The notes below the pieces were generated by a model. It was given only the letters and a program-made list of their open reading frames with translations, made no database searches and was not told the DNA's origin. A stretch of 64,000 nt of DNA from Actinomycetota bacterium (GTDB taxonomy: Bacteria; Actinomycetota; Geothermincolia; Geothermincolales; RBG-13-55-18), in contig MU158684.1 in assembly GCA_015711955.1 (NCBI GenBank), forward strand, positions 11,815 to 75,814, read 5' to 3'. Made by a program: the position numbers and the translations under genes. Positions 31,735 to 52,352 of the stretch are shown in pieces (the first letter of the stretch is position 1; every line of letters begins with the position of its first letter).

Positions 31735-32670
31735 TCACCATCCTTCCAGAAATCCCCCCTCCCTCAGGTAGGCGTACGCGGATAGGGCGGCCTTGGCCCC
31801 CTCCCCGGCGGCGATGATGATCTGCTTCTCCTGGACGTCGGTGACGTCACCGGCTGCGAAGATGCCGGGTACGCTGGTGCGGTTGTTGGAGTCCACCATC
31901 ACCTCGCCTTTGTGGTTCAACTTCACTTCGGGGGGGAGGAAGTCAGTGCTGGGGATGCTCCCTATCTCCACGAAGACCCCCTCCACCGGAAGGCTCTGCG
32001 CCTTTCCGTCGACCTCGAAATCGATGGCCTTCACGAACCTGTCGCCCCGGATGGCGCGGATCTGGGCCCGGTAATAGACCTTGATCCGACCGTGCCCGAG
32101 GACGGCCTGGCGCCGTACCTCGTCCCCTCCCAACCTGTCCTCTATGGTCATGAGGTGTACCTCCGTGGCCAGTTCTCCCAGCTGGAGGGCGGCGTCCAGG
32201 GCGGAGTTCCCGCCCCCCACCACCGCCACCCGCTTGCCCCGGAACAAGGGAGCGTCGCAGGTGGCGCAGTAGGCCACGCCCCTTCCCCGGAACTCCCTCT
32301 CGCCCGGGACCCCCAGCGGCCTGGGGACCTTTCCGGTGGCCACTATCACGGCCGGTGCCAGGTGTTCCCCCATCGAGTGGGCCACGCCGATGAGCTGTTC
32401 CGATCTCCTTACGGAAGTCACCCGGGATCCTTCCAGGAGATCCACGTCGAAGGTCTCCAGATGGGCCCGGAACCTCTCCACCAGTTCCGCCCCGGTGATC
32501 AGCTGGTAGCCCAGGTAGTTCTCCACCTCCCAGGACCAGGCGGCCTGTCCTCCTACGTTCTCCGAGATGACCAGGGTGCGCAGCATCTTCCTGGCGCAGT
32601 ATACGCCCGCCGATAGGCCAGCGGGTCCGGCGCCTATGATAATCACGTCCGCGTGGGGCTGTTTTTCCAT
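31735..32670 (-). CDS. trxB: Thioredoxin-disulfide reductase-like flavoprotein
   Basis: GAGPAGLSAG, the redox centre GVAYCATCDAPLF, GGGNSALD and AAGDV are present. Confidence 0.85.
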   Translation of the reverse strand: MEKQPHADVIIIGAGPAGLSAGVYCARKMLRTLVISENVGGQAAWSWEVENYLGYQLITGAELVERFRAHLETFDVDLLEGSRVTSVRRSEQLIGVAHSMGEHLAPAVIVATGKVPRPLGVPGEREFRGRGVAYCATCDAPLFRGKRVAVVGGGNSALDAALQLGELATEVHLMTIEDRLGGDEVRRQAVLGHGRIKVYYRAQIRAIRGDRFVKAIDFEVDGKAQSLPVEGVFVEIGSIPSTDFLPPEVKLNHKGEVMVDSNNRTSVPGIFAAGDVTDVQEKQIIIAAGEGAKAALSAYAYLREGGFLEGW

Positions 32671-32724
32671 TTTGCAGCTTGGTACGGCCCTTGATCCACG
32701 CCCGCCAGCAGCGCAGGGTCTAGA

Positions 32725-43743: not shown

Positions 43744-44832
43744 TCAAGAGATCACAAACCGCCTTTCTTTTTTCCTGACCTCTACGAAAAGATCGCCCCC
43801 TGCGTCGAGTTCCCACTCCACTTCCGAATCGAGATCGTAAGCTTTTTCGTAGCCTCCCTGGACCATACCGGCCAGCATAAGGTGGAGAGCGGGACTGGAT
43901 ACCCTCAAAAAGACGCCCTCTCTGCCTGCCCTGTATTCGAGCACTTCTCCCAGGCCTCGCAAGGCGAGCTGTTCCCGCACGCTCTTGTGGTCCGAGAGGT
44001 CGATGAACCTCAGGCCTTCCTTGGCGTTGCGTCTTTGGGCCTCCACCACTGCCCGGGGAATGGCCTCCCCCAATTCCCATTCCAGCGCCTGGAACACCGA
44101 GTCGAGCAGCCCCGGCCCCAGAAGGGCCATACGCCGTCCGGTCACGGTGTTCAGGATTATGCCGTTCTTGAGGTCCCATCGGTAACGTCGGTAGGCCTTC
44201 GGGGCTCCGCACGATGGGCAGCGAGGGAGGTTGACGTCTCCGCTGCGGGGAAAGTGGGCCTCCAGGCGGAGCCTTTCCTTGAGGACTTCGGGGTATCTAG
44301 TCCAGTAAGTGGTGAACTCGTAGAGTTTGGGCTCCACCTCATGGTAGCTCACAGAGTACTCCCCTCCTATCAGGCAGGCGATGACGCCGGCGAAGGCCCC
44401 GGCTGCCTCGAGGACCGAGAAAGGCCGGTATATGCGGATGGTGCAATAGTCGTCCTTTTTGCCTTCGTACTTGTAATCCAGGAAAGAGTATCTCCCGTAG
44501 CCGATGATATGGCAGAAATCGATTATGGGCATGGCCACCAGCGGTGGCTCCACCAGGCCTTCCCTGACGTTCTCCTTCACTTCCTCCGGTATCACGCTTT
44601 CCATGTAGAGCTGACATCCGCGAGCGGTGATGTTGACCACCAGATGATCGATGGGAAGGCCGGTGATCCTGCCGATGTGTTGGAAGAGGGGATCAATGAA
44701 CTCGCACTCCAGGAAAGCCACTCGCGCCCTTTCGTTCATGGACTGAACCATGGAGCCGTCCCGGAGCCAGCGGTGAGAGCGGGTGAAGGGCTCGGGAACT
44801 CCACATTCCCCGCACGTTCGGATCTCGTACAA
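43744..44832 (-). CDS. Hypothetical protein with an internally duplicated CxxCG + V4R-like module
   Basis: TTG start after GGAAGGGG. The halves begin CGECG...RW.RDG and CPSCG...RWDLKNG. The C-terminal LRGLGEVLEYRAGREGVFLRVSSP...AGMVQGGYE resembles V4R domains. Third-codon positions are G/C-biased on this strand, so the 444-aa plus-strand ORF is a shadow. Confidence 0.6.
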   Translation of the reverse strand: MYEIRTCGECGVPEPFTRSHRWLRDGSMVQSMNERARVAFLECEFIDPLFQHIGRITGLPIDHLVVNITARGCQLYMESVIPEEVKENVREGLVEPPLVAMPIIDFCHIIGYGRYSFLDYKYEGKKDDYCTIRIYRPFSVLEAAGAFAGVIACLIGGEYSVSYHEVEPKLYEFTTYWTRYPEVLKERLRLEAHFPRSGDVNLPRCPSCGAPKAYRRYRWDLKNGIILNTVTGRRMALLGPGLLDSVFQALEWELGEAIPRAVVEAQRRNAKEGLRFIDLSDHKSVREQLALRGLGEVLEYRAGREGVFLRVSSPALHLMLAGMVQGGYEKAYDLDSEVEWELDAGGDLFVEVRKKERRFVIS

Positions 44833-45631: not shown

Positions 45632-46171
45632 GTGGGTTCCATCGGCCTTATCTGCTTCGGGTCCTTCGATTACCGGGAGCTGAGCTTTCTCCCTTCCCGT
45701 CTGCGGGAGTTGTTGGGGCTGAAGGCCCTCTGGGCGGGGCATGTACCCTTGCCAGGCTCAGCCTACCGGCGCGCTCGGGGTCAGTACTTGGCCTCTGGGT
45801 TGCTGGAGTCCCTCACGGCTATGGGTGGCGATCATCTGAAGCTGTTGGGATTGACCGAAGAGGACCTTTATGCCCCCGGGCTTAATTTCGTCTTCGGGCA
45901 GGCCCAGTGGGGAGGGAGGTGTGCCGTGGTTTCCCTGGCGCGGCTTCGCCCCACTTTCTACGGTCTGCCCCACCGGGAGCGGCTCTTTTGTTCCAGGACG
46001 GTGAAAGAGGCGGTGCACGAGCTCGGCCACACCTTCATGCTCCCCCATTGTCCCAACCCCTATTGCGTCATGTGTTTTTCCAATTGTCTCGAGGATACGG
46101 ATCGCAAGTCGGAGGAGTTCTGCGCCGAGTGCCGCGAAATCCTCGATCGAACGCTCCGGGGATTGCGCTGA
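45632..46171 (+). CDS. Archaemetzincin (peptidase M54) family zinc protease
   Basis: HELGHTFMLPHCPNPYCVMCFSN...FCAEC fits the HExxHxxGx3Cx4CxMx17CxxC signature. GTG start. Confidence 0.8.
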   Translation: MGSIGLICFGSFDYRELSFLPSRLRELLGLKALWAGHVPLPGSAYRRARGQYLASGLLESLTAMGGDHLKLLGLTEEDLYAPGLNFVFGQAQWGGRCAVVSLARLRPTFYGLPHRERLFCSRTVKEAVHELGHTFMLPHCPNPYCVMCFSNCLEDTDRKSEEFCAECREILDRTLRGLR

Positions 46172-46858: not shown

Positions 46859-47620
46859 ATGGCGAAGTCTTCCTCCGAGCATGAAGGCCCTCTCGGTGAC
46901 GGGCACTGCGGCCCCTCGGCCTCCGATGACGAGATGTATAAAAAACAGGTGGAGGCATTGGCCGAGGTGAGTCGGGCCATCGTCTCCGACCTTTACCTCG
47001 AGGACATCCTCAAGCTCATAGTGATGGTCACTGCCGAGCTTATGGGGTCTAAGATCGTTTCCATAATGCTGCTCGACGAGAAGACCGAGACGCTCCACAC
47101 CAAGGCCACCCAGGCGGTCAGCGAGGCATACCTGAAAAAACCCCCTTTGCCCTTGGGGAAGGGCATCGCCGGCTTGGCGGCCAAAGAGGGCCGACCCATC
47201 CAGGTCCTGGACGTGCGCCAGGATCCCCGCTATTTCAACAAGGAGATAGCGGAACGTGAGAACCTGTGCTCGCTTTTGAGTGTCCCCATGAAAGTGAAGG
47301 GCAAGGTCATCGGCGTGTTGAGCTGTTATACCTCCGCCCCCCACGTCTTCAGCGAGCACGAGGTGAACCTGCTCACCGCCCTGGCCAACCAGGCGGCGGT
47401 GGCCATAGAGAACGCCCAGCTCATGGTGAAGTCCCGCATCATCCAAGAGGAGCTGGAGACCCGTAAGCTGGTGGAGAGGGCCAAGGATATCCTGGCCCGT
47501 AACCTGGGGATTGACGGGGACCGGGCTTACCGACTGATGCAGAAACGCTCCATGGACACCAGGAAGAGCATGAGGGAGATAGCGGAGGCCGTCATCCTCG
47601 CCGACCTGAGCGAGAGATGA
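46859..47620 (+). CDS. GAF-ANTAR RNA-binding antitermination regulator
   Basis: The GAF block is GKGIAGLAAKEGRPIQVLDVRQDPRY...VIGVLSCY. The C-terminal ANTAR block is LETRKLVERAKDILARNLGIDGDRAYRLMQKRSMDTRKSMREIAEAVI. Confidence 0.85.
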   Translation: MAKSSSEHEGPLGDGHCGPSASDDEMYKKQVEALAEVSRAIVSDLYLEDILKLIVMVTAELMGSKIVSIMLLDEKTETLHTKATQAVSEAYLKKPPLPLGKGIAGLAAKEGRPIQVLDVRQDPRYFNKEIAERENLCSLLSVPMKVKGKVIGVLSCYTSAPHVFSEHEVNLLTALANQAAVAIENAQLMVKSRIIQEELETRKLVERAKDILARNLGIDGDRAYRLMQKRSMDTRKSMREIAEAVILADLSER

Positions 47621-47649: not shown

Positions 47650-49230
47650 TCATCCCTTGAGTATTTTCCAGGCCTCCTCCTTGTCAAGCTCCATCACGTA
47701 AGGGATGCCAGATATCTCCGCCGCCTCCTTCGTGAGGGCCGCGATGTCGTCGCGGGTGATGTACTGCAGTGCGAACTTGCGTGCCCCGCACATCAGCTGG
47801 GCCAGGCCCTGGGCCAGCCTCTGGAAATAGGTGTAGACGCCTATGGCCCCGGCGGGCAGCCTGTCGAAGTCCTTGCCCAGCTTCTCCCTGAGCAAGACAC
47901 CCGTGTAGAAGATCTCTTCCATGGTTTTACCGTAACGCTCGAGGTAGACAGGTAAATCGCCCTCCTGGATCCTCTTGCCCACCGTCTTGCCCACCATGGC
48001 TGCGCACAGGGGACCCCTCGCCATGCCGATGGCCTTGACGTAGGGAGCTCCGAGGGCCAGTCCCTTGAAGATTTGGTCCTCGAGGACAAAGCCTCCGGCG
48101 AAGGCGATGGCCGGCACGTATTTGCCCTGTTTGGCAAGGTAATCCACGAACTGGTAGGTCAGACAACAGAGCTCCACCGTGGGTATGCCCCACTCGTTCA
48201 TCATCCTCCAAGGGCTCATCCCCGTCCCGCCCCCGGCGCCGTCTACGGTCAGCAGGTCGATGCGATGGTCCGAGGCGTACTTAACCGCCCGAGCCAGGTC
48301 CACCGGTCGATATGCCCCGGTCTTGAGGAAGATCCTCTTAGCGCCCATTTCCCGCAGTTCCTTGACGCTTTGGGCGAAACCCTCCTCGGTGACCATCCCC
48401 AGCCTGGAATGCCTTTCGAACTCCCTGATGCCGCCGGCGTTGTAGGCCTTGACCACGTCAGGATCGTCTGGGTCAGGAAGGACTATGTAACCTTTCTTTT
48501 TGAGCGAACGGGCCTTGTCGATGGAGCTGACCTTGACCTCGCCGCCGATGTCTTTCGCTCCCTGCCCCCATTTGAGTTCCACCGTCTCCACGCCGAGTTT
48601 GGTTATGACGTACTCGGGCACTCCCAGTTTGGTGTCCTCCACGTTGAACTGGACCACTACTTCGCCGTACCCATCTTGCTGCCACTCCCGGAAACACCGG
48701 ATGCGGTGTTCCATGTCAGGGGATCTCACCACCTTGCCGTTCTTTATCTCCGCCTGGTCGTCCATGCCGCATATGTTCTCCCCCACGGTTAGGACGCATC
48801 CGGAAAGGGCGACTCCGCCCGCCAGGCCCTCCCAGTTCCTCTTGGCCACCATGGTGGAGCCCAACCCGGGAACGACGATGGGGAGCCTCAGTTTTATGGG
48901 GTGTCGGTCGCCGATGGAGCTCTCCAGGTTGACGTTGGTGAATATCGCGTGATCGCTGTCGGCGGGCACGCCGTGGGCGCCTGCGGCGGTGCCCATGATG
49001 CTGAAGTGGGATAGGTCGATGGGGTAATCCTTCTCCGACGCGGCGGTGATTATGCCGAAAGGCTGTGGGTATATGAGTTCGGGTCCTCGATAGGCGGATT
49101 TGCCTATCTCGCACATCCCTATGCATCCCTCCACGCAGGTGGCGCACATTCCGCTGAAGGGGCTTATGCTGTCGGGGGTTCTGTTCTTTGACAGGGTCGC
49201 CGCGGAACGGTTGTACTTGCTCATGGTCAT
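47650..49230 (-). CDS. Glutamate-synthase central-domain-like FMN/Fe-S oxidoreductase (no amidotransferase domain)
   Basis: The N-terminal Cys cluster is CATCVEGCIGMC. The GltB-domain-2 pattern is ELKWGQGAKDIGGE...LTVDGAGGGTGMSP...GIPT...IAFAGGF. Confidence 0.85.
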   Translation of the reverse strand: MTMSKYNRSAATLSKNRTPDSISPFSGMCATCVEGCIGMCEIGKSAYRGPELIYPQPFGIITAASEKDYPIDLSHFSIMGTAAGAHGVPADSDHAIFTNVNLESSIGDRHPIKLRLPIVVPGLGSTMVAKRNWEGLAGGVALSGCVLTVGENICGMDDQAEIKNGKVVRSPDMEHRIRCFREWQQDGYGEVVVQFNVEDTKLGVPEYVITKLGVETVELKWGQGAKDIGGEVKVSSIDKARSLKKKGYIVLPDPDDPDVVKAYNAGGIREFERHSRLGMVTEEGFAQSVKELREMGAKRIFLKTGAYRPVDLARAVKYASDHRIDLLTVDGAGGGTGMSPWRMMNEWGIPTVELCCLTYQFVDYLAKQGKYVPAIAFAGGFVLEDQIFKGLALGAPYVKAIGMARGPLCAAMVGKTVGKRIQEGDLPVYLERYGKTMEEIFYTGVLLREKLGKDFDRLPAGAIGVYTYFQRLAQGLAQLMCGARKFALQYITRDDIAALTKEAAEISGIPYVMELDKEEAWKILKG

Positions 49231-49253
49231 GGCTCAGATTCCTCCTCTCCTGA

Positions 49254-49877
49254 TCAGTCCTTGCTGGGAAATGCTTCTATTTGCACCGTGTCTAGGCAGG
49301 AATTGCAGAGTTGGCCGGGTCTCAACGGTCCCGGGCAAGGGAGCTCGCATACGGGACACACGTAAAGACAGGCACCGCATTCCCGGCATTCCTCGGAGCG
49401 GGAGTGGAAGGGCATGGCCACTTCCCTCTGCGTGCCCCGGTTGGCGAAGCCTATGGCACCGGCCTGCATCTGTTCCTTGCACATGCGGACGCAAAGACCG
49501 CACAGGATGCACCCTCTGTCCTCGGGCCTGAACCTGATCTTGGTGACGCCGTACTTGCTGGCCAAACATTGCAAGGTCCGGGAATTTGGGCAGGAGGCCA
49601 GCAGCAGTTCTATGATGACCTTGCGGGCCCTCCTTACCTTCTCCGAATTGGTCCGGACCTCAATGCCTTCCTGGACGGGATAAGAGCATGAGGCGGATAG
49701 CCTGGAGCGCCCACCCCGGATGATCTCGACTATGCAGAGGCGGCAGGAACTGTAAGGCGTTAGCCCCTCCATGTAACACAGGGTGGGGATCTCTATGCCG
49801 TAGTGCCTGGCTGTCTCCAATACCGTCCATCCTTTTTCGGCTTCCACCGAACGCCCATCGATGACAAACCTGACCAT
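49254..49877 (-). CDS. 2Fe-2S plus 2x[4Fe-4S] electron-transfer protein (NuoG/HydA N-terminal-like)
   Basis: FVIDGRSVEAEKGWTVLE...IPTLCY...SCRLCIVEI is the plant-type ferredoxin part. CILCGLCVRMC and CRECGACLYVCP follow. Confidence 0.8.
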   Translation of the reverse strand: MVRFVIDGRSVEAEKGWTVLETARHYGIEIPTLCYMEGLTPYSSCRLCIVEIIRGGRSRLSASCSYPVQEGIEVRTNSEKVRRARKVIIELLLASCPNSRTLQCLASKYGVTKIRFRPEDRGCILCGLCVRMCKEQMQAGAIGFANRGTQREVAMPFHSRSEECRECGACLYVCPVCELPCPGPLRPGQLCNSCLDTVQIEAFPSKD

Positions 49878-49881
49878 ACTA

Positions 49882-51741
49882 TCACTTCCTTACCACCGCT
49901 TGGAATTCGCAAACCTCGAGGCAAATACCGCATTTCTCGCACTTTTCCCCTATGACGTGATGAGGTTTCTTCTTCTCCCCGCTTATGGCTCCCACCGGGC
50001 AGGCCTTCTTGCATCTCATACATCCGGTGCACTTGTCTTGGTCGATGGAATAACTCACCAGTGCTTTGCACACGCCGGCGCGGCATTTCCTCTCCAAGAT
50101 GTGTTCCCTGTATTCCTCTCCGAAGTACCTGAGGGTGGAAAGCACGGGATTGGCGGCCGTTTGGCCGAGGCCGCAAAGGGAGGTGTCCCTCATCACCTCG
50201 GCGAGCTCCTGAAGTATCTCCAGCTGTTCGGGGCTTCCTTGGCCTCCGGTTATGTCGTCCAAGATATAGAGCATCTGCTTCAGCCCCTCCCTGCAGGGAA
50301 CGCACTTGCCGCAAGACTCACCGCAGAGGAAGTCCACGAAGAAGCGGGCGATGTCCACCATGCAGGTGCCCTCGTCCATCACTATCATGCCGCCGGAACC
50401 CATCATGGACCCCACGTCGTAGAGGCTGTCGAAATCCACCGGCGTGTCGAGAAGTTGTTCCGGGATACACCCCCCGGAGGGACCCCCAGTCTGAACCGCT
50501 TTGAACCTTTTTCCGTTGGGCATCCCCCCACCGATGTCGAAGATGATCTCGCGGAGAGAGATTCCCATGGGCACCTCCACCAGACCGGTGTTCCTTATCT
50601 TGCCCACCAGGGAGAAGATCTTTGTTCCCTTGCTCCGTTCCGTTCCCAGTTTCGCGTATTCCTCGGCGCCCATGTTGATGATGACGGGGACGTTTGCCCA
50701 CGTCTCCACGTTGTTGAGGTTGGTGGGCCTGTCGTATAGGCCCCTCTCTGCGGTGTGGATGTGCTTCACTCGGGGCTCGCCGAGACGGCCCTCGATGGAA
50801 GCCATGAGGGCGGTGGACTCACCGCACACGAAGGCGCCGCCCCCAATGCTCACGTGAACATCGAAGTCGAAGCCGGAGCCCATGATGTCCTTGCCGAGAA
50901 AACCCATCTCGCGGGCCTGCTCGATGGCGGTGTAGAGGTTCTCCACCGCCAAAGGGTACTCGTGCCTCACGTACACGTAGCCCTCGCAGGCCCCTATGGC
51001 GTAAGCGCCGATGATCATTCCCTCCAGGACCAGTTGTGGGTTTCCCTCCAGAAGGCTTCGGTCCATGTAGGCTCCGGGGTCTCCCTCGTCCGCGTTGCAG
51101 AGGACGTACTTGATGCCGTCCCGGGATCGGGCCCGTCGGGTGGCAGCCCACTTTTCGGCGGTAGGGAAACCGGCTCCTCCCCTTCCTCTGAGACCGGCCC
51201 TTCTCACCTCTTCTATGATCTGCTCCGGCTCCATCCGGAAAAGGGCCTTGGAGAGGGCGGAATAACCGCCTATGGCGATGTAATCATCGATGTTCTTGGG
51301 ATCCACGCTCTCGTTCATCCCTAAAAGGAGGCGCACCTGTTTTTTGTAGAACGGCACCTCGGACATGGTAAGACAGGCATCCCCGGACCTGGGGTCCACA
51401 TAGAGCTTCTCCCTTACGATTTCTCCGTCCAGGAGGGTCTTGGTTATTAGGTCCCTCACCTCCCCGACCTTTACCCGCGTATAGAAAATGTCTTGAGGCT
51501 TGACTATCATGATGGGTCCCATCTCGCAGAACCCGTGGCAGCCCGTGTACCTCAGGGCTACCCGGTCTTGGATCCCCAGTTCCTCGAAGACCTTCCTCGT
51601 CTCCTCGTATACGGCGTTACAGCCCTGAGCCCTGCAGCCCGTACCCCCGCACAAGATCAAGACGCGTTCATATCGGCGCCGCTCATCCGCCAGATTTTTC
51701 CTGAGTTCTTCCAAAGCCGCGGGCGTCTCTATCCTAACCAT
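49882..51741 (-). CDS. NuoF-like NADH-binding flavoprotein of the HydB/HndC type (N-terminal Trx-like 2Fe-2S, C-terminal 2x[4Fe-4S])
   Basis: GLRGRGGAGFPT, NADEGDPGAY, the N3 cluster ESCGKCVPCREG...LCGLG, the C-terminal CTGCMRCKKACP / CEKCGICLEVC and the N-terminal CGGTGCRAQG...CHGFCEMGP are present. Confidence 0.9.
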   Translation of the reverse strand: MVRIETPAALEELRKNLADERRRYERVLILCGGTGCRAQGCNAVYEETRKVFEELGIQDRVALRYTGCHGFCEMGPIMIVKPQDIFYTRVKVGEVRDLITKTLLDGEIVREKLYVDPRSGDACLTMSEVPFYKKQVRLLLGMNESVDPKNIDDYIAIGGYSALSKALFRMEPEQIIEEVRRAGLRGRGGAGFPTAEKWAATRRARSRDGIKYVLCNADEGDPGAYMDRSLLEGNPQLVLEGMIIGAYAIGACEGYVYVRHEYPLAVENLYTAIEQAREMGFLGKDIMGSGFDFDVHVSIGGGAFVCGESTALMASIEGRLGEPRVKHIHTAERGLYDRPTNLNNVETWANVPVIINMGAEEYAKLGTERSKGTKIFSLVGKIRNTGLVEVPMGISLREIIFDIGGGMPNGKRFKAVQTGGPSGGCIPEQLLDTPVDFDSLYDVGSMMGSGGMIVMDEGTCMVDIARFFVDFLCGESCGKCVPCREGLKQMLYILDDITGGQGSPEQLEILQELAEVMRDTSLCGLGQTAANPVLSTLRYFGEEYREHILERKCRAGVCKALVSYSIDQDKCTGCMRCKKACPVGAISGEKKKPHHVIGEKCEKCGICLEVCEFQAVVRK

Positions 51742-51742
51742 G

Positions 51743-52216
51743 TCAGTCCTTTCCCTCCCCCTCCATCAGCCGCTGGACTATTTTTTTCGCTCGAGCCGGG
51801 GTGACCTCGCCGAGATATTCCCCGTCTATGATCACCACCGGGCCTAAGGCACAGGCTCCGACGCAGTTGACAGTTTCCAGGGAGAACATCATGTCGTCCG
51901 TGGTCTGTCCTGGCTCGATGCCAAGGCAGCGTCGAAGCTCGTCCAGCACGCCTTGGGAATTCCTCACGTGGCAGGCGGTGCCCATGCAGCAGGTGATGGT
52001 ATGTTTGCCCTTGGGCTCCAGGGAGAAGGCCTTGAAGAAGGTGGCCACGCCGTAAAGGTCCGTCATGGGTATGCCCATGGCCTTTGATATGTTTCGCAGC
52101 GCCTTCTCCGGAAGGTAATGATATTCCCGCTGAGTCTCGTGGAGAATCTGTATCAGGCAGCTTCTCCTCCCCCCGTATTTCTCGACCGCAGCAAGTTCAG
52201 GCGCCTTCTGCTCCAT
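51743..52216 (-). CDS. NuoE-like thioredoxin-fold [2Fe-2S] subunit (HydC/HndA type)
   Basis: LIQILHETQ...ATFFKAF...ITCCMGTACHV...VNCVGACALGPVV. ATG at 52216 after GGAGGAGG. Confidence 0.85.
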   Translation of the reverse strand: MEQKAPELAAVEKYGGRRSCLIQILHETQREYHYLPEKALRNISKAMGIPMTDLYGVATFFKAFSLEPKGKHTITCCMGTACHVRNSQGVLDELRRCLGIEPGQTTDDMMFSLETVNCVGACALGPVVIIDGEYLGEVTPARAKKIVQRLMEGEGKD

Positions 52217-52243
52217 CGCCTCCTCCAAATCTCTCAAGTCCTC

Positions 52244-52290
52244 AAGAAAATAAAGAGACGATCATCCTCTCCGGACAGCATCGTCTCTTT
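52244..52290 (-). terminator. Leader (attenuator) terminator between the promoter and the RBS of the NuoE-like gene
   Basis: Minus strand AAAGAGACGAT-17 nt-ATCGTCTCTTT (11-bp perfect stem) is followed by ATTTTCTT. It lies about 20 nt upstream of the SD. Confidence 0.65.
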
Positions 52291-52293
52291 CGT

Positions 52294-52310
52294 CGCACCC
52301 CGTTGTGCGC
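52294..52310 (-). promoter_or_regulatory. Hairpin with AxxG hexaloop (ANTAR-substrate-like)
   Basis: Minus strand GCGCAC-AACGGG-GTGCG ends 3 nt upstream of the left arm of the terminator. Confidence 0.4.
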
Positions 52311-52322
52311 AGTTTGCAGGAA

Positions 52323-52352
52323 ATTGTATCCGCTCGTCGTCGGGCGCGTCAA
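52323..52352 (-). promoter_or_regulatory. Candidate sigma-70 promoter of the four-gene operon
   Basis: Minus strand reads TTGACG-N18-TACAAT. Confidence 0.5.

Follow-up and report, generated by a model that had tools for sequence, protein, structure and literature searches.

A Type-2 Bfu gene set with a glutamate synthase FMN-domain-like partner in an Actinomycetota genome and across bacteria and archaea

A 64,000-nucleotide stretch from the metagenome-assembled genome of an Actinomycetota bacterium (GenBank assembly GCA_015711955.1, contig MU158684.1; this whole 64-kb stretch is referred to below as the window) carries at positions 47650-52237 a tightly packed set of four minus-strand genes. 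They encode homologs of BfuC and BfuB, the core of the Bfu family of flavin-based electron-bifurcating enzymes, a small iron-sulfur protein (BfuA), and a protein resembling the flavin mononucleotide (FMN) domain of glutamate synthase, which we call GltBL. The intergenic gaps between GltBL, BfuA, BfuB, and BfuC are 23, 4, and 1 nucleotides, and in a consensus scan the only strong promoter-like site of the operon lies upstream of BfuC (positions of these and other features are collected in Table 1). A first-pass annotation had described the four genes as lying 1 to 23 nucleotides apart; these coordinates and gaps were verified, and the domain content given there for all four proteins was matched by Pfam and NCBIfam. 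The BfuC reading frame probably starts at an in-frame ATG at 52216, which is located behind a GGAGGAGG ribosome-binding site and gives a product of 157 amino acids, rather than at the listed TTG at 52237. The same annotation had reported no amidotransferase, GXGXG, or GltD-like partner in or near the operon, and tblastn agrees with Pfam and NCBIfam on this point. No part of Escherichia coli GltB, whether the amidotransferase domain, the GXGXG domain, or the rest, had a tblastn match in the window, and relatives of GltD, glutamate dehydrogenase (GDH), and glutamine synthetase (GS) had none across the 64 kb apart from one weak GltD-like match, which is a thioredoxin-reductase-like gene. No hydrogenase genes adjoin the operon in the list of open reading frames (ORFs) of the window, and the public names of the window proteins are generic.

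BfuC is a NuoE-type thioredoxin-like 2Fe-2S protein (PF01257; Pfam E value of 4e-49) with C84, C89, C125, and C129 as the predicted ligands of [2Fe-2S] cluster C1, and its best matches in the PDB are HydC, NfnC, and WorC chains. BfuB combines the Nuo51 FMN domain (PF01512), SLBB (PF10531), and NADH_4Fe-4S (PF10589) in Pfam with an N-terminal partial match to PF01257 at residues 27-101, in which C31, C36, C68, and C72 are predicted to bind a [2Fe-2S] cluster (B5), and with a C-terminal 2x[4Fe-4S] domain at residues 565-616 (PF00037/Fer4 dicluster). The N3-type [4Fe-4S] cluster B1 is predicted at C477, C480, C483, and C523, and clusters B3 and B4 are predicted at two C-terminal CxxCxxCxxxC motifs (C571-581 and C601-611). 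The Bfu family has been defined by a BfuBC core together with a Cys/Cys(Thr)/His/Cys/Cys site that nonbifurcating homologs lack (Schut et al. 2022, PMC9304861). In HydB of Acetomicrobium mobile this site consists of C438/C476/H525/C531/C536, the second position being Cys or Thr (PMC9304861), and alignment to that protein (7t2r_B) places the B2/Zn site of the window BfuB at C460/T498/H547/C553/C558. Sixty-one orthologous BfuBs likewise have the H-x(4-6)-C-x4-C motif. The InterPro set described for BfuB comprises the NuoF FMN/NADH domain, SLBB, the NuoF [4Fe-4S] region, and a ferredoxin-type 4Fe-4S domain (Schut et al. 2022, PMC9304861); the window protein has all of these as well as the B2/Zn ligands, the N-terminal 2Fe-2S domain, and a NuoE-like BfuC beside it.

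The PDB matches to BfuB point the same way, with WorB (9mqx_B, 766 bits), NiFe-HydB (7t2r_B, 747 bits), HydB (8a6t_B and 7q4v_B, 744-746 bits), and NfnB (9n5u_B, 678 bits) at the top. Matches to these proven bifurcating enzymes are full length, whereas complex I NuoF and the beta subunits of formate dehydrogenases match only the central part of the protein, residues ~125-550, at E values of 1e-110 or weaker. The domain set, the B2/Zn site, and the PDB matches uphold the earlier assignment of the NuoE-NuoF module to the HydABC/Bfu type, and every residue tied to bifurcation-type HydB was found in the alignment. At the sequence level, BfuB thus has all of the signatures of the bifurcating Bfu family.

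In Pfam, BfuA consists of Fer2_4 and a 4Fe-4S dicluster domain. Its predicted sites are a [2Fe-2S] cluster, A1 (C34/45/48/64), two [4Fe-4S] clusters (C123-133 and C164-174), and an additional 4-Cys site that is conserved near the C terminus (C177/181/191/194); all 16 of these cluster or zinc cysteines are invariant across 17 aligned orthologs. Most nonactinobacterial orthologs have four more cysteines at the extreme C terminus, which the window BfuA lacks. The HxxxCxxCxxxxxC motif is degenerate (LLASCPNSRTLQC) and has no histidine, so that BfuA contains neither the His-ligated cluster motif of HydA/NuoG nor a catalytic domain. The protein had at first been compared to the N-terminal part of HydA/NuoG; the 2Fe-2S and 2x[4Fe-4S] domains named then are there, but with the His-ligated cluster absent the likeness is closer to WorA, the best PDB match (9mqx_A, E value of 4e-41). 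WorA keeps clusters A1, A2, and A4, lacks A3 and a catalytic C-terminal domain, and uses a four-Cys zinc finger and a helix to dock a separate catalytic module (PMC12318220). By these sequence features, BfuA is the Type-2 Bfu “plug” of the published classification, for which the catalytic subunit is encoded separately.

It is quite unlikely that the complex exists without bifurcating, with BfuABC serving as a plain HoxEFU-like NADH (or ferredoxin) dehydrogenase module that feeds electrons to GltBL; the whole would then be an NADH-dependent enzyme resembling glutamate synthase, with NuoEF in the place of GltD. The HoxEFU diaphorase of bidirectional NiFe hydrogenases does share the three-subunit layout resembling NuoE, NuoF, and the N terminus of NuoG, and NCBIfam returns matches to HoxE and HoxU, but at scores far under the curated cutoffs (150 versus 224 for HoxE and 122 versus 333 for HoxU); no HoxYH genes are present, and membership in the HoxEFU group was rejected. 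The reduction of 2-oxoglutarate and NH3 by NADH is exergonic on its own, which would make bifurcation dispensable, and half of the relatives have no domain for binding ferredoxin. Against this, the best PDB matches of BfuB are all proven bifurcating enzymes, the His-ligated cluster of HoxU is missing from BfuA, and HoxF is not known to have the Bfu-specific domains. BfuB also keeps the N-terminal 2Fe-2S domain, the His/Cys B2-Zn site, and the C-terminal B3/B4 clusters, unlike NuoF, HoxF, and FdsB (PMC9304861).

The remaining subunit, GltBL, has a single Pfam match, to PF01645 (Glu_synthase) at residues 279-399 (E value of 5e-15; 56 bits versus a cutoff of 20.4), and no NCBIfam model covers it. 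Its N-terminal CxxCxxxCxxxC site (C29/C32/C36/C40) is nearly invariant in relatives, as expected for an electron entry cluster. Local alignment with the FMN domain of E. coli GltB gave a score of 128, compared to 60 +/- 10 for shuffled sequences, and is colinear through the QGAK, GGTG-SP, and GG...K..LGA motifs to the last strand. The AlphaFold2 model is an FMN TIM barrel with a predicted local distance difference test (pLDDT) score of 84.7, with low confidence for the Cys-rich N terminus. Neither Pfam nor NCBIfam identified a class-II glutamine amidotransferase domain among the four proteins, and no GXGXG domain was matched in GltBL by Pfam or tblastn. The Cys triad of the [3Fe-4S] cluster is absent, the corresponding region having one nonconserved cysteine, C409. 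By comparison with the Synechocystis structure, the QGAK lysine of GltS would correspond to K226, which is a lead rather than a test. The first-pass description of a 526-residue protein that matches only the FMN domain of GltB and has a CxxCxxxCxxxC cluster is correct in both parts, with the proviso that the resemblance to GltB is remote. On its motifs and Pfam match, GltBL is a divergent member of the glutamate synthase FMN-domain family that has lost the 3Fe-4S triad and gained an N-terminal four-Cys site, and it is presumed to be the catalytic subunit. In one relative from the search of representative proteins, P0219 (800 amino acids), a GltBL-type domain is fused to an F420 dehydrogenase module of the FrhB/FdhB type, which has an N-terminal dicluster. 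P0219 is 38% identical to GltBL, keeps the Cys-rich junction as CxxCxxCxxC, and matches PF01645 positions 57-305. This fusion indicates that a GltBL-type catalytic domain can receive its electrons from input modules that are exchangeable.

A scan of one genome per species yielded at least 593 matched stretches with a GltBL relative, of which the best 80 loci were kept; 76 of these had at least 1 kb of upstream sequence and were informative for tblastn searches with the three Bfu proteins. BfuA is encoded directly upstream of GltBL on the same strand at 70 of the 76, and the full BfuC-BfuB-BfuA-GltBL set is found at 59 loci, so that the four-gene arrangement is conserved across genomes. Flanking genes at the 80 loci are otherwise unrelated between lineages. 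GltBL is 65-92% identical to its relatives across many bacterial and archaeal lineages, with values of 65-70% for Aminicenantes, Dehalococcoidia, Zixibacteria, Acetothermia, Bacillota, Methanoperedens, ANME-1, and Thermoplasmata, and a phmmer search over 1.84 billion representatives returned only 1116 proteins at E values of ≤0.001. The conserved A-GltBL order rules out chance and, especially with no catalytic domain in BfuA, makes a physical complex likely, and our confidence that this is a real, conserved system is high. It is highly improbable that BfuABC and GltBL are separate enzymes that happen to be cotranscribed. Six related loci do have GltBL with no Bfu genes; against this stand the retention of the gene order in both Bacteria and Archaea despite unrelated flanks, the absence of a third substrate for BfuABC on its own, and the conserved 4-Cys N terminus of GltBL, which has no obvious stand-alone role.

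Two forms of BfuB occur among these loci. A short form of ~620 amino acids with two ferredoxin-type C-terminal motifs is encoded at 30 loci, including the window, and a long form of ~1030-1090 amino acids, in which a tail of ~505 amino acids replaces both motifs, is encoded at 31 (for example, L006-L009, L014-L016, L053, and L058). In Pfam the tail is Fer4_20 plus Pyr_redox_2, the architecture of GltD/NfnB. The His/Cys site is kept in both forms, and the ferredoxin domain and the GltD-like module are mutually exclusive. In this respect the earlier statement that a GltD-like module is missing holds for the window, but the module is present as a BfuB fusion in about half of the relatives. Electrons leave solved Bfu enzymes for ferredoxin through the C-terminal ferredoxin-like domain (PMC12318220), and its exchange for a module that binds NAD(P) suggests that the low-potential partner can be swapped.

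Other variations in gene content were seen at individual loci. In some operons (L010, L038, and L048), the N-terminal thioredoxin-like 2Fe-2S domain is split off from BfuB and encoded by its own gene of 127-138 amino acids; in L038 this gene is preceded by a 176-amino-acid ORF that was read as a histidine-kinase-like ATPase. A second GltBL paralog, 50-60% identical, is encoded a few kilobases from the operon in Dethiobacter, in Methanoperedens, and in an Actinomycetota metagenome-assembled genome; it is possible that these paralogs differ in specificity. The operon at L045 comes from a metagenome-assembled genome assigned to Dethiobacter alkaliphilus. Three of the loci with GltBL alone belong to Thermanaeromonas (L042), Peptococcaceae (L047), and Moorellaceae (L075). 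Reading of their ORF translations found FeoB and an IclR-type regulator in the flanks, a PduL-like protein in L047 and L075, and, in L042, a sigma-54-type PAS regulator together with a molybdopterin oxidoreductase downstream.

The neighboring ORFs of all 80 loci were clustered and the families checked by Pfam. The only recurrent neighbors that are neither Bfu nor regulatory genes encode GDH (12 loci), GS (11 loci), and, in Dehalococcoidia, HisF. GDH and/or GS is encoded within 8 kb at 21 of the 80 loci, in several independent arrangements and in unrelated lineages. GDH lies directly downstream on the same strand at L021, L027, L037, L038, L039, and L056, its start overlapping the GltBL stop at L039; it is directly upstream of BfuC at L034 and L038, 670-770 nucleotides upstream at L026 and L039, and divergent in the archaeal loci L053 and L058. 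GS is found 55-99 nucleotides from GltBL in Hakubella and two archaeal loci and 220-2600 nucleotides upstream of BfuC in six Aminicenantes-type loci. This adjacency, together with the divergent orientation of the window operon from carA (Pfam confirmed) and an adjacent carB-like gene, favors glutamate/2-oxoglutarate/ammonia chemistry, and we have moderate confidence that the chemistry is glutamate related. The substrate, which the first-pass annotation had considered not deducible from the sequence, is in part indicated by these recurrent neighbors. No glutaminase (amidotransferase) or GXGXG gene recurs in the 80 neighborhoods, which points to free ammonia rather than glutamine as the nitrogen donor. 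An archaeal-type split glutamine-oxoglutarate aminotransferase (GOGAT) with neighboring domain-1 and domain-3 genes was also considered and rejected, since no such genes recur among the neighbors.

It is unlikely, though worth serious consideration, that the same complex couples NADH and ferredoxin to a different chemistry, with GltBL acting on another 2-oxo/2-hydroxy/imino pair or on an unrelated FMN substrate. Such pairs could be 2-oxoglutarate/2-hydroxyglutarate or pyruvate/lactate, by analogy with the confurcating lactate dehydrogenase-EtfAB. A Foldseek search with the GltBL model returned lactate monooxygenase, IDI-2, glycolate oxidase, GltS (1ofd, rank 11), and IMPDH at similar scores; with the alpha-hydroxyacid oxidases/monooxygenases and IDI-2 at the top and level with GltS, the search cannot separate these enzymes, and the substrate cannot be read from the fold. 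The FKxLALGA motif is common to FMN_dh enzymes, and P0219 has a weak match to PF01070, but the window GltBL has none in Pfam, and PF01645 is the sole family that it matches. The missing glutaminase domain, 3Fe-4S ligands, and GXGXG domain would suit a different reaction, as would the lack of conservation at R241 (see below), whereas the QGAK motif and the motif order are those of GltS. An adjacent GDH would supply 2-oxoglutarate to a 2-oxoglutarate reductase; GS, in contrast, has no role in hydroxyacid metabolism and directly adjoins the operon in several archaeal and bacterial loci, and genes of the hydroxyglutarate pathway, lactate permeases, or the like do not recur in the 80 neighborhoods.

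The four genes may encode one soluble Type-2 Bfu complex with GltBL as the catalytic subunit, coupling NADH and ferredoxin to 2-oxoglutarate/glutamate-type chemistry, a reading of the sequences for which we consider the case evenly balanced. An NADH-linked and possibly ferredoxin-linked complex with a GltB-like catalytic subunit had been proposed from the start, and the Bfu residues and the conserved gene set support it. The physical complex, its substrate, its direction, and bifurcation are what we infer from these data. In the scheme that we envisage, NADH would bind and reduce the FMN of BfuB. One branch would pass electrons from B1 through A1 and the two [4Fe-4S] clusters of BfuA to the N-terminal 4-Cys site and then the FMN of GltBL, which would reduce a 2-oxo or 2-imino acid, the likeliest reaction being that of 2-oxoglutarate and ammonia to glutamate. 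The other branch would run from C1 of BfuC through the C-terminal B3/B4 clusters of BfuB to ferredoxin or, in the GltD-fused relatives, to NADP(H) in its place. The net reaction would be 2 NADH + Fd(ox) + 2-oxoglutarate + NH4+ <-> 2 NAD+ + Fd(red) + glutamate. From the textbook GDH equilibrium, the 2-oxoglutarate+NH4+/glutamate couple is estimated to lie at about -0.13 V, well above NAD+/NADH; on this estimate NADH would be the bifurcating donor, and the reaction would be reversible and close to equilibrium. In reverse, amino acid fermenters could oxidize glutamate with the aid of reduced ferredoxin, much as the confurcating lactate dehydrogenase does with its own substrate. We hypothesize, tentatively, a bifurcating glutamate synthase/dehydrogenase with NADH as the mid-potential donor, 2-iminoglutarate as the high-potential acceptor, and ferredoxin (NADP+ if GltD-fused) as the low-potential acceptor. 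Taken in full this proposal is unlikely, and our confidence that bifurcation proceeds in the proposed way is lower than our moderate confidence in the glutamate-related chemistry.

Several observations weigh against the reading of the four genes as one such Type-2 Bfu complex with glutamate-type chemistry. GltBL found nothing at an E value of ≤1 when searched by phmmer against PDB sequences, GltS being missed, and a profile of 21 GltBL family members searched against the PDB recovered only de novo TIM barrels and IDI-2, and no GltS. An hhalign comparison of the GltBL family with the FMN domain of E. coli GltB aligned 82 columns, centered on the DGGTG-SP and GG..K..LGA motifs, at a probability of 67%. 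All Foldseek matches had query-normalized template modeling (TM) scores of ≤0.48, and enzymes other than GltS ranked as high as GltS. R241 would correspond to the 2-oxoglutarate-binding arginine of GltS, ~20 residues after the QGAK lysine, but it is not conserved and serves only as a lead. With no glutaminase domain, linkage to GS does not give a classical GS-GOGAT cycle, and an ammonia-dependent glutamate synthase would in part duplicate the function of a GDH encoded in its own operon. GltBL is encoded without Bfu genes at L002, L004, L042, L047, L057, and L075, which belong to “Ca. Solincola,” “Ca. Geothermincola,” Hakubella, and three Moorellaceae/Peptococcaceae. Finally, the third substrate of characterized Bfu enzymes has a potential between those of NAD and ferredoxin, and high-potential acceptors such as peroxide or quinone have only been predicted for the family (PMC9304861); no characterized Bfu enzyme with a high-potential acceptor was found in the literature, which makes this the weakest step of the mechanism.

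Among the closest known systems is the Type-2 Bfu enzyme WorABCSL of Acetomicrobium mobile (9MQX; Feng et al. 2025, PMC12318220). It shares the BfuBC core and a small BfuA with A1 and two [4Fe-4S] clusters, no A3, and a C-terminal 4-Cys site, onto which one or more separate catalytic subunits plug. WorA is 40 residues longer than the window BfuA, and the partner of the latter is a single FMN TIM barrel with one 4-Cys site rather than tungstopterin WorL with a polyferredoxin WorS nanowire; GltBL presumably acts on an amino or oxo acid, and the Wor enzyme acts on an aldehyde. The FeFe-HydABC, NiFe-HydABCSL, and NfnABC/StnABC enzymes (7P5H, 8A6T, 7Q4V, 7T2R, 9N5U, and 8OH5) are homologous to BfuB and BfuC over the full length (E values of 1e-188 to 1e-223) and have the same cofactor motifs. 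Their third substrate, H2 or NADPH, is reached via a BfuA domain or HydSL and lies between NAD and ferredoxin in potential, whereas the presumed couple of GltBL is more positive than NADH. With GltB and ferredoxin-dependent GltS (E. coli GltB; Synechocystis 1OFD), GltBL shares the PF01645 FMN TIM barrel with colinear motifs and an iron-sulfur chain fed from a nucleotide-binding partner, and its relatives share gene linkage to GS and GDH. It differs in having an N-terminal 4-Cys site instead of the amidotransferase domain, GXGXG domain, and 3Fe-4S triad, in a similarity to GltB too low for BLAST or phmmer, and in having NuoEF/Bfu rather than GltD or free ferredoxin as the donor. The predicted F420-dependent glutamate synthase FGltS (Susanti and Mukhopadhyay 2012, PMC3448663) likewise joins a GltS-type unit to a noncanonical electron input, as does P0219, but that input is an F420-oxidizing FrhB and not Bfu, and glutamine and other GltS subunits were proposed to take part (PMC3448663).

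The first-pass annotation named [FeFe]-hydrogenase, formate dehydrogenase, and NfnB/GltD-like subunits as Bfu partners; the list is longer and also includes NiFe-hydrogenase, the tungsten aldehyde oxidoreductase WorSL, and several predicted partners. The 2022 survey of the family does not mention a glutamate synthase or GltB-like partner and leaves 17-18 of 57 clades without an assigned function (PMC9304861), and the characterized members in later structural papers are hydrogenases, Nfn/Stn, and Wor. Open-access literature contained no description of an enzyme combining NuoEF/Bfu with a GltB FMN domain, in keeping with the earlier remark that no characterized enzyme is known to have this composition, although a report in a subscription journal is possible; papers that name both Bfu and glutamate synthase refer to GltD-like domains or ordinary GOGAT. 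By its sequences, the gene set is that of a Type-2 Bfu enzyme with a presumed catalytic partner of a new type.

The leader of the operon contains a candidate promoter, a hairpin (P1) with an ANTAR-type A..G hexaloop, and, just before the BfuC ribosome-binding site, a terminator-like hairpin followed by a U-run that is a candidate attenuator. Folding of 52216-52322 gave -39.4 kcal/mol, with a z score of -3.9 relative to shuffles, and a search of Rfam with the leader gave no match. The leaders of L001, L003, and L005 follow equivalent TTGAC(G/A)...TA-rich hexamers, and these loci also keep the terminator-like element upstream of BfuC and P1, with a compensatory change in L003 (GCAUAC/GUAUGC); the P1 hexaloops are AACGGG, AAUGGA, AAAGCU, and GAUGAG. 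A GAF-ANTAR RNA-binding regulator is encoded convergently with the window operon. Orthologs are convergent in L001 and L003 and directly upstream in L005, and in Hakubella a GAF-ANTAR gene stands beside GltBL in the order GlnA-GltBL-GAF/ANTAR. A canonical dual-hairpin ANTAR site was looked for, and only the first hexaloop hairpin is clear, with no convincing second. From the conserved leader hairpins and the adjacent GAF-ANTAR gene, it is a reasonable guess that the GAF-ANTAR protein antiterminates at the leader terminator and so controls the operon in this lineage.

Table 1. Positions of features in the window and, where an L number is given, in related loci
Feature	Sequence	Position	Strand	Details
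GltBL ORF	Window	47650-49230	Minus	526 aa; ORF list
GltBL N-terminal CxxCxxxCxxxC site	Window	49111-49146		
BfuA ORF	Window	49254-49877	Minus	207 aa; ORF list
BfuB ORF	Window	49882-51741	Minus	619 aa; ORF list
BfuC ORF	Window	51743-52237	Minus	164 aa; ORF list
Terminator-like hairpin + U-run	Window	52244..52290	Minus	Candidate attenuator
Leader hairpin P1	Window	52291..52311	Minus	GCGCAC-AACGGG-GUGCG; fold
Sigma-70-like promoter candidate	Window	52323..52352	Minus	TTGACG-18-TACAAT; 10/12 matches, consensus only
GAF-ANTAR regulator	Window	46859..47620	Plus	Pfam GAF + ANTAR
Thioredoxin-reductase-like gene	Window	31747-32673		Weak GltD-like tblastn match
ORF with Cys-pair motifs	Window	43744-44832	Minus	362 aa; CGECG..., CPSCG...
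Peptidase M54, archaemetzincin type	Window	45632-46171	Plus	179 aa; Pfam E value of 1e-29
Leader with terminator-like element	L001	1-275		
Leader with terminator-like element	L003	2150-2450		
Leader with terminator-like element	L005	4750-5050		
GAF-ANTAR ortholog	L001	4894-5613		
GAF-ANTAR ortholog	L003	7088-7762		
GAF-ANTAR ortholog	L005	4123-4782		
GAF-ANTAR gene, Hakubella	L057	9930-10352		
Long-form BfuB	L006	4070-7246		
Separate 2Fe-2S domain gene	L010	5004-5420		
Separate 2Fe-2S domain gene	L038	3640-4038		
Separate 2Fe-2S domain gene	L048	4226-4609		
ORF before separate 2Fe-2S gene	L038	3065-3595		176 aa
Second GltBL paralog	L045	2129-3706		
Second GltBL paralog	L049	3024-4604	Minus	
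Second GltBL paralog	L052	10192-11772		

The rest of the window is ordinary housekeeping content; glyQS, ppdK, dnaG, and rpoD were recognized by reading of ORF translations alone, and a 1093-amino-acid ORF beside carA was read as carB. An archaemetzincin-type peptidase is also encoded. The 362-amino-acid ORF with Cys-pair motifs has no Pfam match and is overlapped on the opposite strand by a 444-amino-acid ORF of lower third-position GC content (GC3), and either of the pair may be the real gene.

For anaerobes, Bfu enzymes are one of the main ways to produce or consume low-potential ferredoxin, and this gene set adds a partner type absent from the 2022 survey, with carriers in Aminicenantes, Dehalococcoidia, Zixibacteria, Acetothermia, Actinomycetota, Bacillota, Methanoperedens, ANME-1, and Thermoplasmata. 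These lineages are mostly uncultured, and a 2-oxoglutarate/glutamate substrate, if confirmed, would connect their central nitrogen metabolism to the ferredoxin pool, such that glutamate synthesis could conserve energy or reduced ferredoxin could pull glutamate oxidation. The enzyme would then be the first of the Bfu family shown to use a high-potential organic acceptor and a glutamate synthase with neither a glutaminase domain nor a 3Fe-4S cluster. The system would test the Bfu flavin/cluster site with NADH as the bifurcating donor, and its two natural forms, with either the ferredoxin domain or a GltD-like module in its place, provide a built-in comparison for mechanistic work. If the proposal is true, nitrogen assimilation or, in reverse, glutamate fermentation would be coupled to energy conservation in anaerobic bacteria and archaea.

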